A DNA stretch of 64,000 nt from Promethearchaeota archaeon (GCA_048939625.1 JBHLPH010000002.1:64001-128000); one strand, 5' to 3'; positions 8,313-14,010 are shown, counted from the stretch's first letter. Numbers and translations are program-made. Notes: a model not told the origin generated them from the letters alone.

Positions 8313-10571
8313 CTATGTGTATGGACCCGGTGTGGTGTCAATGGCGTCGCGTTTAGTTGACATGGCATCGATATATTCTTTATAAGCTGTGAGCATCTCT
8401 GGGGTGATGCTGGGCTTGATTTTATCCAATGCAGCGTCAAAGTGTTTGCTGTTGACCGTTGTGAGTTTTTCTTCGTGGCGGATGGCATTCATTCCAGCTT
8501 CGCGAACGAGATTCGCAATATCAGCGCCAGAAAAACCTTCGGTAGCCTTGGCTATCTTTTCCAGGTTTACATCATCTGCAAGGGGCATGTTACGGGTGTG
8601 AACCTTTAGAATTTCTACGCGTGCCTCAGCATCGGGTGGTGGAACCAAGATAATTCGATCAAAACGTCCTGGTCGAAGGAGGGCTTTATCGATGATTTCA
8701 GGACGATTAGTCGCTGCGATGACGACGACACTTTTTAGCTCTTCCATTCCGTCCATTTCAGCAAGGAGTTGGTTTAAGACCGATTCGTAGACATGGCTGC
8801 CTTGCCATTGTCCGCGTGCAGGAGCAAGGCTGTCAAGTTCATCGAAGAAGATAATACTAGGAGCAACCTGTCGGGCTTTGCGGAAGATTTTTCGAATTCC
8901 CTTCTCAGATTCACCGACCCACTTGCTAAAAATCTCAGGTCCACGGATTGCAATGAAGTTGGCTTCACTTTCAGTGGCAACCGCCTTAGCGAGCAATGTT
9001 TTTCCACCGCCAGGTGGTCCAACGAGGAGAATGCCTTTGGGTGGTTGCACACCGACTTTTTCGAATTTCGCCGGATACTTCAAGGGCCATTCAACGGCTT
9101 CCCGCAGTTCGGCTTCAACTTCCTTTAATCCCCCTACATCGTCCCATGATACTTTAGGAATTTCGAGATAGACTTCGCGTAGAGCGGATGGTTCTGCACG
9201 TCTAAGAGATTCTTTAAAATCTTCAGCGGTGACTTCTAAATTCTCAATCACTTCTGGGGGAAGGGGTTGATCTTCTTCCAGATTGATTTGTGGAAGGAGT
9301 CGGCGAAGCGTATTCATCGCAGCTTCACGGGCAATTGCGGCAAGATCTGCTCCGACCATTCCATGAGTAGAATCTGCTAGAGCATCGAGATCGACATTCT
9401 TGGTGAGAGGCATTCCTCGCGTATGGATGAGAAGGACCTCTTTTCGTCCGTTGCGGGTGGGAACGGGAATTTCGATTTCCCGGTCAAATCGTCCTGGTCG
9501 ACGAAGGGCGGGATCGAGGGCGTCTTGACGGTTGGTGGCCGCGATGACAATAACACGTCCACGTCCTTGCAGCCCATCCATGAGCGCAAGGAGTTGTGCG
9601 ACGACACGTCGTTCAACTTCTCCCTGAACCTCTTCACGTTTAGGTGCGATACTGTCGATTTCGTCGATGAAGATAATGCTAGGAGCCCGTTCAGAGGCTT
9701 TCTCGAAGAGTTCACGAAGACGTTTTTCGGATTCACCATAGAACTTACTCATTATTTCGGGTCCATTGATGGAAATGAAGGTGGCATCAGATTCACTAGC
9801 TACGGCCCGTGCGAGTAGTGTCTTTCCGGTGCCTGGGGGGCCAAAGAGCAAAACGCCCTTTGGTGGATCAATTCCTAAACGGTCAAAGAGGACAGGATGT
9901 TTGAGGGGGAGTTCAATCATTTCTCGTACACGGTCGATTGCTTCATCGAGGCCGCCAATATCTTCGTATGTCACGATTGGGGTTTTTGCAGTGACTTCTA
10001 CGGCTTCAGGTTGGATTTGAATAATTGTGTCCTCGGTAATTTTCACCACTCCTTTCGGAGTGGTATTGGTTACGACGAACTTGATTTCGCCAAGGGCGAA
10101 AGGAGCACCGGTTCCGCGCATCATGGCTTCGAAGATTGAAGTTGAGTAGTCTCCACTTCGATATGCTCCGGATCCTGCAGTGCTAATGATATCGCCTGGA
10201 GCCACAGGTCGTTGGTTTAGGCTTGGTTTGACGGCATCACCTTCAGCGACGATGCGAACGCCGCGCTGTGCAGGAGCAAGTTCGACTCGTTTAGCAGCAG
10301 GGGGATCTATTCGTCTAACTTCGACGAATTCTCCGATTCCAGTGCTAGCATTACTGCGCACCAGTCCATCCATGAAGATTTTGCCTGATCCTGCGTGAAT
10401 GGATTGGCCACGCCAGACGCGGGCACCTGTGGACTTTTTTCCTGTAATTTCTATGATATCGCCAGATGTTACCCCGAGACGTTCCATGACTTTGGGGTCT
10501 ACACGGACAATGCCCCGTCCAGCTTCATCGCTGGGGAGGGAGACGACACGTAATTGGATTTTGCTTGACAT
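8313..10571 (-). CDS. cdc48: Cdc48/p97/VAT AAA+ ATPase
   Basis: N domain, two AAA modules ([16 protein letters not shown]), RPGRFDR twice, and a penultimate Tyr (..PYT) resembling an HbYX motif. Confidence 0.97.
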
Positions 10572-10994
10572 TTAATCAAATTCCTCCGTCATTTCGGATA
10601 AGCGTTTACGAACAGTTTGGAACTCAGATGCCATTAACTGGAAGAGCGCTTCATAGGTATCAAAGTAGTGGTCGATCATTGCTTTTAGTAAGTGGTCACC
10701 ATCTTTGGTCAACCGGTAGTATCGGCGCATCGGACCTCGACCTTCGCTACGTACTTTGATATCGCCAACAATCCAGCCTTTTTCCGCTAGACGACTGAGT
10801 AAAGGGTAGATGGTTCCGGGTTCCATTTGAATCCGTCCCGTCGACATTTCATCGATTAAGGCGCTGATTCGCGCTCCATAAAGGCTTTCTTGTCGGAGTA
10901 GGGTGAGTACCCAGAACTCAAGAATGCCTCTGTTGATTTCACGCGTCCATTCGCGTAGTTTATCGTGAGTCTTATCGGTGGGGGATTCGTTCAT
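10572..10994 (-). CDS. PadR-family transcriptional regulator
   Basis: RG.LE..VL.LL...YG, GTIYPLLSRL...GWI and GP.RRYYRLT..G. Start reassigned to ATG 10994; its stop abuts the cdc48 ATG. Confidence 0.92.
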   Translation of the reverse strand: MNESPTDKTHDKLREWTREINRGILEFWVLTLLRQESLYGARISALIDEMSTGRIQMEPGTIYPLLSRLAEKGWIVGDIKVRSEGRGPMRRYYRLTKDGDHLLKAMIDHYFDTYEALFQLMASEFQTVRKRLSEMTEEFD

Positions 10995-11020
10995 ATAATA
11001 TCGCTCCAAATATATAGCGT

Positions 11021-11034
11021 GACTATATATAGTC
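11021..11034. promoter_or_regulatory. Perfect 14-bp palindrome GACTATATATAGTC, candidate PadR operator
   Basis: Lies about 27 bp upstream of the PadR ATG and downstream of a minus-strand TTTAAATA TATA-like box near 11057-11064. Confidence 0.6.
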
Positions 11035-11213
11035 TGACAAAGCAGTAATACTATCCTATTTAAACCTATCGAATATCGAAGCCAAAGCCCCCCATTAAAT
11101 TGCACACCATGAAAACTACATCGTTCCAATACTTCCTATGCAGAAAGACTTTAAAAGACGCATCTGACATTGGCTCTGAGCCCAAAGAACAGTAACTGCA
11201 AGGTGGCCAACTA

Positions 11214-12120: not shown

Positions 12121-12735
12121 ATGGCAGCACCCGAATGGACTAAGATTAGACAAGAAATCCTTGACTGCCAGAAATGCCGATTAGCTGAATCCCGAACCCA
12201 GGCAGTGCCTGGAGTTGGACCCCAAAGTGCTCAATTGGTAATTATCGGAGAAGCCCCTGGACGCCATGAGGATCTTCAAGGAGAACCCTTTGTTGGAGCT
12301 GCTGGTAAATTACTTACAAAGTTGCTTGAAGAGGCAGGGATTCCTCGAAGTTCAGTATTCATCACCAACATCGTGAAGTGTCGTCCTCCGGAAAATCGAC
12401 AACCCTTAGCCGATGAACGAAGGGCGTGTTATCCGTATCTCATTCGTCAATTGGATCTCATCCAACCGAAAATTATTGCATTGGTTGGACGTGTACCTGC
12501 TGAGACTATTCTGGAGACCACCGTGCGTATGGGAGCGATGCATGGAAAAACGTTCCACCATGGTGGACGAACGTATATTGTGATGTACCATCCTGCTGCA
12601 GGATTATATAATCAGGATCTGGTTTCTGAGCTCCAAGTCGATATGCAAAAACTAAAACAAGTACTCGATTCAGGAGACCAGTCAAAGCCTGAGAGTGGAC
12701 AACAAGACTTGAGTAAGTTCTTTGAGAAGAAATGA
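12121..12735 (+). CDS. udg: Family 4 uracil-DNA glycosylase
   Basis: CxxC, GEAPG, PFVG.AG, TNIVKCRPP.NR and YHPAA. Confidence 0.96.
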   Translation: MAAPEWTKIRQEILDCQKCRLAESRTQAVPGVGPQSAQLVIIGEAPGRHEDLQGEPFVGAAGKLLTKLLEEAGIPRSSVFITNIVKCRPPENRQPLADERRACYPYLIRQLDLIQPKIIALVGRVPAETILETTVRMGAMHGKTFHHGGRTYIVMYHPAAGLYNQDLVSELQVDMQKLKQVLDSGDQSKPESGQQDLSKFFEKK

Positions 12736-12748
12736 ATTGCTCTATGAG

Positions 12749-13213
12749 CTAGTCCTCGTTTTCCATCATTGATTCAAGTGCCGCCCGGCGTCGAGCGAGG
12801 AATGATTGGAGTTCACCCTGCATTTGAGCCCGAATTCCAAAGCCACCTGATGCTGCCGCACCCATCGGAGAAGTAGGTGTTTGCGGAGGAGGTGCTGCAA
12901 GACCAGGTGAGGAGCTAGGTCCAGAGGGTGCCGGTGGCAGCCCAGGACTTGCCGGAGTATCTGCTGGCGTGGGTGGAGTTGACAAAGAGGGTGCAGAAGG
13001 AGCTGTGCCTTTTGGCCCTCCCATTCGGAGAACAGTATCAACTTGTGTTTCAATTTTCGAGAGGCGGGTTCGTAGTTCTTCCATTTGTTTTTCGAGAGAT
13101 CCCACACCATTCAAAAAGATGGTTGCAACCCGTTCGAGGACTTTTGCGAGCTCCTCGATTTTTTTAGTCGTATCTTTTTCTGCTGCTAGAAAGTCGAATC
13201 CGCCGAATGCCAT
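12749..13213 (-). CDS. Coiled-coil + proline-rich protein with a C-terminal amphipathic/basic helix (candidate actin regulator)
   Basis: 154-aa ATG ORF with a TATA-like TTTTAAA upstream. Heptad helix at about aa 15-63, Pro/Ser-rich linker, then MQGELQSFLARRR. Confidence 0.8.
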   Translation of the reverse strand: MAFGGFDFLAAEKDTTKKIEELAKVLERVATIFLNGVGSLEKQMEELRTRLSKIETQVDTVLRMGGPKGTAPSAPSLSTPPTPADTPASPGLPPAPSGPSSSPGLAAPPPQTPTSPMGAAASGGFGIRAQMQGELQSFLARRRAALESMMENED

Positions 13214-13332
13214 ACTGTTTCAGGTTCAAGTTAGACTGTATGGTTTAAAACCTTGTGGGGCATCAGCTCTGTTCTCAGAAGATTTAGGGGAAAACTAAAC
13301 AATTATCCTTTTAGAAGCTGAAATGCTGTGAG

Positions 13333-14010
13333 ATGACGCAATCGATCTTGTCGCAGTCCCAATATCCACGGGTAATTACGTGGATATTACAACTATTGCA
13401 TCGCCGAACCCAGAAACCTAGTATTCGTAAGATGAATGGATTACTGGTTCAGATTTGCCCGCAGGTCTTTAATCCGATTACGGGTCGAACTACACAGTTC
13501 TTCATTCAGCACATGCAAATTAAACCGGAAAATCGAGTATTGGAGATTGGGACTGGCTCAGGAGCTATTGCGGCAGCAGCCGCTTCTTGCGCACAGTCAG
13601 TGACGGCCACTGATGTGAATCCATATGCTGTTCAGTGTGCCCAAACCACAATGCGATTGAATGATCTGGAAAAGAAAGTCCGTGTCCTGTTGGGAGACTT
13701 GTTTGCTCCTGTGGATGGAGAGAGATTTGATGTGGTCTTATTCAATCCTCCATATTTGGCATTTCAGCCGCGAAGTTGGCTAGCCCAGGCATGGTCTGCA
13801 GGTCCGAATTTTGAACTTCTTGAAAAATTTTTAGATGGAGTGCGAGAGGTGCTTAAAGATGAGGGTAAGATTCAGATTTTACTAAGTTCTGCAACAGTCC
13901 TATCAGAGATTTTCAAGTTAATCAGAAATGCAGCATTTGGAATTCGAGTGATAGCGGAAGGACGGATGCTGGGTTTTATGGAGCGGATTTACTTATTACA
14001 GCTCTCATGA
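13333..14010 (+). CDS. HemK/PrmC-related SAM-dependent methyltransferase
   Basis: LEIGTGSG, DVNP.A, GDLF and FNPPY. Confidence 0.9.
   Translation: MTQSILSQSQYPRVITWILQLLHRRTQKPSIRKMNGLLVQICPQVFNPITGRTTQFFIQHMQIKPENRVLEIGTGSGAIAAAAASCAQSVTATDVNPYAVQCAQTTMRLNDLEKKVRVLLGDLFAPVDGERFDVVLFNPPYLAFQPRSWLAQAWSAGPNFELLEKFLDGVREVLKDEGKIQILLSSATVLSEIFKLIRNAAFGIRVIAEGRMLGFMERIYLLQLS

Follow-up and report, generated by a model that had tools for sequence, protein, structure and literature searches.

A Pan-Asgard Family of Small Proteins with a Putative C-Terminal Docking Helix and a Possible Role in Actin Regulation

Introduction

Asgard archaea possess eukaryote-like actin, profilins, and gelsolins, and crawl on actin-filled protrusions. 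Up to September 2026, profilins and gelsolins were the only known regulators of Asgard actin, and the machinery for filament nucleation and elongation was undiscovered (PMC9433394, PMC13716822). In this study, we analyzed a gene found in a 64,000-nucleotide stretch of DNA from a Promethearchaeota archaeon (GCA_048939625.1, JBHLPH010000002.1:64001-128000; hereafter the window). A first-pass annotation had described its product as a candidate actin regulator with a BRK1/CCDC53-like coiled coil, a Pro-rich linker, and an Ena/VASP-like helix. We found that the gene belongs to a pan-Asgard family of small, presumed adaptor proteins, in which it represents the Thor/Hermod type. This family is best described as a putative docking-helix adaptor and is a concrete candidate for the missing Asgard filament nucleation/elongation factor.

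Among eukaryotic proteins, the EVH2 half of Ena/VASP contains a Pro-rich region, a GAB, an F-actin-binding segment (FAB, residues 259-278), and a tetramerizing coiled coil (PMC10340426). The logic of the new family appears similar: a coil that presumably oligomerizes is joined to Pro-rich motifs of the profilin type and to a short basic helix of amphipathic character, and family tails such as ...MMGELKMLLAARRQKAT and ...SIMDELKTLFSKRR align to the FAB of VASP, LMEEMNAMLARRRKAT. On the other hand, the coil of the family is of another type and lies at the N-terminus, so that the order is reversed; there is no EVH1 domain, and the window protein lacks a GAB.

WASP-family nucleation-promoting factors (WAVE1, N-WASP), which consist of an N-terminal helical region, a Pro-rich domain, and a V-C-A segment, share the Pro-rich middle with the family. 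The N-terminal helix of distant family members matches CCDC53 (WASHC3), a WASH-complex subunit that, like BRK1, is a small coiled-coil partner of these factors, with up to 25.5 bits. In long forms of one lineage (designated f4), a WH2-like LKKV motif is followed by a basic amphipathic helix and then by an acidic stretch containing an aromatic residue; this order is collinear with the VCA region of WAVE1. Fusion of the family to GTPases recalls the GTPase control of WASP-family factors. Of the f4 features, the window protein retains no more than the final helix and a brief acidic terminus, which lacks Trp.

An archaeal precedent is arcadin-2 of Pyrobaculum calidifontis, whose conserved 17-amino-acid C-terminal helix alone docks into the hydrophobic groove of crenactin (PDB 5LY3; PMC5173319). 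A C-terminal helix bound to archaeal actin is also the mode proposed here for the family. However, arcadin-2 comes from a different phylum and binds a different actin, its gene lies in the arcade cluster beside crenactin, its binding depends on Trp, it acts as a depolymerizer or sequesterer, and no Pro-rich arm has been described for it.

Structure of the Window Protein

The gene is an open reading frame (ORF) of 154 amino acids on the minus strand, with an ATG start and a TAG stop (12749-12751). Its parts are as follows.

12749..13213, minus strand: whole gene, 154 codons plus TAG (family profile match in its own genome, E = 2e-56, 191 bits)
13178..13213, minus strand: N-terminal cap MAFGGFDFLAAE (alignments of homologs)
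13022..13204, minus strand: long N-terminal helix, residues 4-64, with invariant VATIFLNGVGSLE and ETQ motifs (AlphaFold2, alignment)
12839..13021, minus strand: disordered Pro/Ser/Thr/Ala-rich arm, residues 65-125 (predicted local distance difference test [pLDDT], variable alignment columns)
12752..12838, minus strand: basic, amphipathic helix at the C-terminus, residues 126-153, putative "docking" helix ending in acidic ENED (AlphaFold2)
12785..12814, minus strand: core of the docking helix, ELQSFLARRR, E134-R143 (alignments; family consensus ELKxLFx[KR]x[KR])

In the AlphaFold2 monomer model, for which the input alignment contained 24 sequences, residues 4-64 form a single long helix (pLDDT 84-95, mostly >90), residues 65-125 are disordered (pLDDT about 40-45), and residues 126-153 form a second helix (pLDDT 86-91). 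Pro accounts for 18 of the 61 disordered residues, among which are the stretches LPPAP and APPPQ, and the protein ends in ...MQGELQSFLARRRAALESMMENED. Thus, translation and model bear out the three-part layout described in the first-pass annotation (a helix, a Pro-rich linker, and a helix with an acidic end), and all segments quoted there are present exactly in the 154-amino-acid translation.

The N-terminal helix is presumed to be a homo-oligomerizing coiled coil. In close orthologs, cap residues G5, F6, D7, F8, E12, K13, and D14 are near-invariant; distant members begin with EEF/ExF-type starts. The sequence of the arm is variable, yet a Pro-rich arm is retained in most lineages, and a TPTSPMG segment is semi-conserved.

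Conservation and Distribution of the Family

A word-indexed search of 5.8 billion proteins yielded 66 homologs with 50-90% identity to the window protein, all of 136-165 amino acids except one fragment of 86; the sources named among them are Promethearchaeota or Thorarchaeota. Multiple alignment revealed that the two helices are nearly invariant, whereas the linker varies. Invariant residues of the N-terminal helix include K17, K18, E20, L22, A23, E27, V29, A30, I32, and F33, as well as N35, G38, L40, E41, E55, T56, and Q57; those of the docking helix are E134, L135, F138, L139, and R141-R143. The number of homologs and the concentration of conservation in two helices show that this ORF did not arise by chance. 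In one subgroup, the first helix is lengthened by an insertion of 7 residues (one heptad), which fits a coiled coil.

When 1.84 billion representative sequences were scanned exhaustively with HMMER, only three further full-length relatives emerged, all of them distant and with the same three-part layout. A profile that included these three reached Odin-, Hod-, and Loki-type members. The family profile matched 123 of 151 sampled Asgard genomes, 61 of the 72 high-quality genomes, and 46 of 52 genera. The family is mostly single-copy, with ORFs of 134-190 amino acids, and the window protein has all features that define it: the N-terminal helix, the disordered arm, the C-terminal tail helix, and a full-length profile match. 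The member of Odinarchaeum yellowstonii LCB_4 is WEU40005.1, annotated as "hypothetical protein". No member was found outside Asgard archaea in the searches of 5.8 billion and 1.84 billion proteins, in which most matches carry no source name; all named matches belong to Promethearchaeota, Thor-, Odin-, and Hodarchaeota. We found no description of the family in the searchable literature.

Across the phylum, only the plan (N-terminal helix, arm, C-terminal helix) and the core of the tail are conserved. The coil diverges to <30% identity. The tail has the consensus NP...R..h..ELKxLFx[KR]x[KR], after which acidic residues are common. Among internal positions, only E134 and L135 stay the same in every lineage.

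Long Forms, Loki Types, and GTPase Fusions

Loki-type members, including those of two closed genomes (6.0 Mb and 4.4 Mb), have two or three GxPPPPPG repeats, a classical profilin-type motif, directly preceding ...PVSLRGSIMDELKxLFSKRR and a run of up to 10 Asp. The poly-Pro feature noted in the first-pass annotation is weak in the window protein itself but canonical in these relatives.

The f4 long form (276-340 amino acids) is present in 27 of 31 genomes of one lineage, comprising two closed genomes of 3.1-3.3 Mb and 25 others. At the following loci, a WH2-like motif, L[KTQ]K[VA], occurs two or three times.

L046:7416-8378, minus strand: f4 long form
L049:1504-2442, plus strand: f4 long form
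L050-L061: further f4 long forms

The shared N-terminal helix is followed in these proteins by Ala/Pro repeats of the GAPNLSAAP type and a short helix ending in L.KAP. A second motif, I......L[KT]KVD.D.H.KER, comes next; it is a canonical LKKV in several members and is triplicated in the two closed genomes as ...AILEAKAKLKKV. Behind it lie a basic helix of amphipathic character, an acidic stretch with Phe as its last residue, and the family tail. Both the L.KAP and the I......L.KVD.D.H.KER motifs are invariant in f4.

The complete coil and tail module of the family also forms the C-terminus of Arf/Gtr1_RagA-like GTPases of 408-469 amino acids (Pfam Arf, 75 bits), encoded by almost every genome of one Loki-type family. 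Comparison of the family with the fusion by hhalign gave a probability of 93% (E = 4e-7) over 90 columns spanning coil and tail. Representative loci, which have a conserved extra N-terminal region of ~130 amino acids, are listed below.

L062:989-2215, plus strand: Arf/Gtr1_RagA-like fusion
L063:719-1945, plus strand: Arf/Gtr1_RagA-like fusion
L064:1136-2386, minus strand: Arf/Gtr1_RagA-like fusion
L100:220-1629, plus strand: Arf/Gtr1_RagA-like fusion

These proteins (e.g., MHA2430964.1) are annotated only as "ADP-ribosylation factor-like protein". They share coil and docking helix with the family but differ from it in the GTPase head, the extra N-terminal region, and a linker that is short or basic in one type; a second type retains a Pro-rich linker before ...NPRSQIMLELKDIFKKK.

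Similarity to Eukaryotic Actin-Binding Sequences

Eukaryotic references were the GAB (223-239) and FAB (259-278) of VASP (PMC10340426), the VCA of N-WASP (PMC6624021), and residues 499-559 of WAVE1 (PDB 4n78_D). The FAB was compared by Smith-Waterman alignment with the part of each protein behind the coil; z-scores were obtained from composition-preserving shuffles, and 3,616 long ORFs of the window genome served as background. The window tail scored 35 (z = 5.1), and 7 of the background ORFs scored as high. Tails of other lineages gave z = 5.5 (lineage f6, which ends in the first of the two tails quoted above), and 6.0 and 7.5 (Loki types); for family tails, 4-7 of the background ORFs scored as high. 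In an ungapped scan with a FAB 17-mer, the window tail ranked 10 among 10,939 ORFs of the 2.3-Mb genome. The FAB likeness is therefore real yet not unique, and its recurrence across lineages is not independent because these lineages share descent.

Similarity to WASP-family factors is seen in f4. Aligned with the VCA of WAVE1, f4 proteins show a collinear WH2, charged linker, C helix, and acidic run; for L046 the score was 50 (z = 8.1), and a single background ORF scored as high. Against the VCA of N-WASP, other f4 members scored 47-54, a level reached by 1-8 background ORFs, except L061, which scored only 40 (58 background ORFs as high); parts of the N-WASP fragment are of low complexity, being Pro-rich or acidic. 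The tail of the window protein, FLARRRAA, has no LKK[TV] motif, and L[KT]KV or LQKA after a short helix is present only in the f4 relatives.

The N-terminal helix was compared with CCDC53/WASHC3 by using the Pfam model PF10152, whose curated cut-off is 24.6 bits. PF10152 was the top Pfam match of the Odin member P0071 (16.3 bits, E = 0.014), the f4 long form L046 (20.9 bits, E = 5e-4), and its ortholog L049 (25.5 bits, E = 2e-5, above the cut-off). The L046 and L049 matches are confined to the N-terminal coiled coil (PF10152 positions 5-50). No family member aligns to the conserved C-terminal region of CCDC53 (profile positions about 100-147), and the few six-frame matches to that region fall in unrelated long ORFs. 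The window protein had no CCDC53 match at E <= 10; its helix matches the f4 helix with an hhalign probability of 93% (E = 2.6e-7). Thus, the CCDC53-like helix claimed for the window protein was recognized only in its distant relatives, and we regard the match as a lead for homology of the N-terminal helix, short of demonstration.

Other searches returned coiled coils. In Pfam, the window protein gave only sub-threshold coiled-coil noise (FlaC_arch, NPV_P10, CLZ, DUF7310), and sequence and profile searches of PDB gave mostly trimeric coiled coils, such as reovirus sigma-1, adhesin/TAA stalks, and the CLZ zipper of CNG channels. Chains of BRK1/HSPC300, which has a 75-amino-acid trimer-forming helix, are part of WAVE-complex entries in PDB and were absent at E <= 10 from the profile searches with the family and with the f4 form, neither of which was aimed at BRK1. 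A search for longer, fused forms scored none, a weak test since Pro-rich words crowd the candidates.

Actin and Its Regulators in the Window Genome

The window genome (87.6% complete) encodes one profilin and two gelsolins of two domains each. A profile of the family tail matched no gelsolin ORF in 5 genomes. Two tandem actin-family genes encoding 337 and 343 amino acids are located at G000:C45:24297-26424 (L001, L002; Pfam Actin, 113-124 bits). One of the two proteins was searched against PDB, and its best match was Arp1/centractin. By sequence, both genes are actin-related proteins distinct from Lokiactin. Lokiactin itself was not found in this assembly; complete copies are present in the same genus. 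In several sister metagenome-assembled genomes, it is cut by contig ends (e.g., G011:C15:6-584; G060:C9:53228-53734 with G060:C18:11406-11822), which suggests that Lokiactin is systematically hard to assemble in this genus.

Lokiactin was detected in 71 of the 72 high-quality genomes, compared with 61 for the family. The phyletic comparison with Asgard actin proposed in the first-pass annotation thus shows a parallel distribution, but the co-occurrence is uninformative because both are near-universal.

Proteins enriched by co-immunoprecipitation with Lokiactin in L. ossiferum were five gelsolins, a profilin, and an "Arf" of 38.1 kDa (10.1101/2025.11.30.690169, Supplementary Table 2). The gene directly upstream of the family gene encodes a 206-amino-acid Zn-ribbon protein and is kept only in Loki-type genomes. 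This protein starts with MGRRKRKK and has CPKCGH...CGHCG motifs.

L066:738-1358, plus strand: Zn-ribbon protein
L067:2050-2670, minus strand: Zn-ribbon protein

GNAMCCOK_02218 (24.01 kDa; mildly enriched in the co-immunoprecipitation, log2 1.36) fits its mass, although this identity is a guess from mass and position; GNAMCCOK_02217 and GNAMCCOK_02219 are in the proteome and absent among the co-immunoprecipitation rows examined. We considered placing the family ortholog (L066:1501-1956) in the data set by mass and neighbor and rejected this, as the mapping of identifiers is a guess. The copurified "Arf", UYP48373.1 (38.1 kDa), was considered as a candidate carrier of the module; the 6.0-Mb genome (G181) yielded no fusion of this kind. 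Because the exact ortholog sequence is not on record and a 97-amino-acid antisense ORF overlaps the L066 ortholog, the co-immunoprecipitation is uninformative for the family.

Possible Function of the Family

We tentatively suggest that the family is an actin regulator, with Lokiactin as the most likely partner of its end helix. Lokiactin is ranked first because of the layout as a whole, the presence of GxPPPPPG and LKKV motifs, the FAB/VCA-like order, the CCDC53-like helix, and the precedent of arcadin-2. In the proposed mechanism, N-terminal helices would pair into a homo-oligomeric coiled coil from which each chain extends a flexible Pro-rich arm, predicted to be disordered. The near-invariant amphipathic basic end helix, together with its acidic residues, probably docks onto a conserved partner. 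It may bind the hydrophobic groove of Lokiactin or the side of the filament, in the manner of WH2, the FAB of VASP, or arcadin-2, and the arm may recruit profilin-actin. The oligomer would then be a multivalent binder of filament ends or sides and might act as an elongation, bundling, or nucleation-promoting factor, which in some lineages could be under the control of an Arf-like GTPase. In function, the family may be likened to the EVH2 half of Ena/VASP or to the Pro-rich/VCA half of WAVE/WASH; membership in either is not demonstrable. If actin is bound, Pro-rich, helix-tipped actin-assembly factors, perhaps with GTPase control, would predate eukaryogenesis.

A number of observations weigh against an actin-related function. 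No match to Pfam WH2 (PF02205) was found at E <= 10 in the window protein, its last 49 amino acids, or five distant members, nor in the f4 long form and its excised repeats. There is no Pfam match to EVH1 or VASP_tetra, and the sole coil is N-terminal. When PDB was searched with profiles of the whole family, of its tail, or of the f4 form, no WH2, VASP, WASP, or WAVE chain was retrieved, and the monomer model had 0 matches in PDB by Foldseek. Since neither Pfam nor the PDB profile searches returned these families, membership in the WH2, Ena/VASP, or WASP families is not supported. The acidic end of a WASP-family VCA has a conserved Trp that contacts Arp2/3; Trp is absent from all tails of the family, which end in ENED in the window protein, poly-Asp in Loki types, and a Phe-ended acidic run in f4. 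FLN and LARRR/FLARRR are invariant only within the Thor/Hermod-type clade; outside it, FLN is replaced by VLN, ILN, or LLK, with FSKRK, FAKVRK, or FKKIR in the tail. In the window genome, 9 other ORFs match the FAB 17-mer at least as well as the window tail. Other f4 members are unremarkable against WAVE1 (110-851 of the background ORFs score as high). CCDC53 is matched at all by only 5 of 33 members, a six-frame scan of the 151 genomes with PF10152 gave no match above the cut-off, and sub-threshold matches occurred in 6 of 14 control genomes, so that convergence of coiled coils is possible. Asgard archaea are not known to possess a canonical Arp2/3 complex. At the window locus, no actin, profilin, or gelsolin gene is linked to the family gene, and no neighboring gene is common to 10 loci from 10 lineages; gene neighborhood is uninformative here. 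Finally, weak binding to VASP poly-Pro was reported for the profilins of Thor and Heimdall, and lack of binding for those of Loki and Odin (PMC8410842), yet the best poly-Pro motifs of the family are found in the Loki members.

The resemblances to eukaryotic proteins quoted in the first-pass annotation hold as patterns, including that to the VASP FAB as given in PMC10340426, but they are short. The FAB part of the proposed FAB/WH2-like tail exceeds shuffled sequences, whereas WH2 never matched. With respect to two outcomes that the annotation had named as refuting it, the window protein matches only generic coiled-coil profiles, and FLN and LARRR are kept in close orthologs only. All eukaryote-like features of the family consist of short motifs or a coiled coil, for which convergence is easy.

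The main rival explanation, which we consider somewhat doubtful, is that the family is an adaptor or effector of a small-GTPase network. In this case, the end helix would dock onto an Arf/Rag-like GTPase or a regulator of the roadblock/longin type with no direct contact to actin, and coil and arm would serve as a tether in membrane trafficking or signaling. The presence of the whole module at the C-terminus of Arf/Gtr1_RagA-like GTPases supports this explanation, and a helix tethered in such a fusion often binds its own head domain. However, a GTPase fusion would be equally expected for a GTPase-controlled actin factor: Arf and Rac control WAVE, and Cdc42 controls WASP. A GTPase-network adaptor also leaves the LKKV-type motifs of f4 and the GxPPPPPG repeats unexplained. 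If a partner other than actin is bound, the family still represents a conserved docking peptide in the closest relatives of eukaryotes.

A stronger form of the actin hypothesis is that the family is an archaeal forerunner of the nucleation-promoting machinery of the WASP/WAVE/WASH type, with a CCDC53/BRK1-like helix, a profilin-recruiting arm, a V-C-A-like actin-binding end, and, in some lineages, direct wiring to an Arf-like GTPase. We regard this as unlikely; if true, GTPase-controlled actin assembly factors predate eukaryotes.

It is more improbable still that the end helix, in the manner of the membrane-targeting sequences of MinD and FtsA, anchors a coiled-coil oligomer to the membrane through its flexible arm. 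The hydrophobic face and K/R cluster of the helix (ELKxLFxKRK) resemble MinD tails of the L/F-K-R-L-F type, and the Arf-family fusions are membrane-associated proteins. On the other hand, the acidic runs right after the helix (ENED, or up to 10 Asp in Loki types) would repel anionic lipids, and the near-invariance of E134 and L135 suggests a protein partner.

A similarly low probability is given to a purely structural role of the coiled-coil protein, in which its likeness to eukaryotic motifs would be a coincidence, the arm a spacer, and the end helix folded back onto its own coil. All statistically sound database matches are indeed generic coiled coils, and the motif matches, lying at the top 0.1-0.3% of ORFs, are not unique. 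However, a self-binding helix would not be expected to recur on GTPase heads that lack poly-Pro, nor to stay invariant throughout the phylum while the coil diverges.

A link to ESCRT, in which the end helix would be a MIM1-like ligand of the Vps4 MIT domain and the arm would carry MIM2-like sites, is very improbable: Asgard archaea possess Vps4 and ESCRT-III, whose tails likewise have a C-terminal amphipathic basic helix after a Pro-rich linker, but the spacing L-x-x-F-L-x-R-R-R misfits the MIM1 pattern (D/E)xxLxxRLxxL(K/R), no ESCRT gene adjoins the family gene in 10 lineages, and no Snf7/ESCRT match was found in Pfam.

Genomic Context of the Window Gene

The family gene is flanked by a uracil-DNA-glycosylase-like gene that ends at 12735, with which it is convergent, and by a methyltransferase-like gene that starts at 13333. 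As both neighbors are on the plus strand, the family gene is a stand-alone transcription unit. Further features around it are listed below.

8313-10571, minus strand: CDC48/p97-type double AAA ATPase
10572-11129, minus strand: PadR-like small regulator
12121-12735, plus strand: family-4-type uracil-DNA glycosylase
13244..13250, minus strand: candidate TATA-like box TTTTAAA (coding strand), 31-37 nucleotides 5' of the ATG, from reading of the sequence

None of the genes for the CDC48/p97-type ATPase, the PadR-like regulator, and the glycosylase is a conserved neighbor of the family gene in other lineages. Two antisense ORFs of 79 and 109 amino acids (12928-13298, plus strand) overlap the Pro-rich part of the family gene; shadow ORFs of this kind could lead to annotation of the family on the wrong strand in some genomes. 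The distance of the TATA-like box from the start codon matches that of archaeal promoters, and its placement would give a very short leader.

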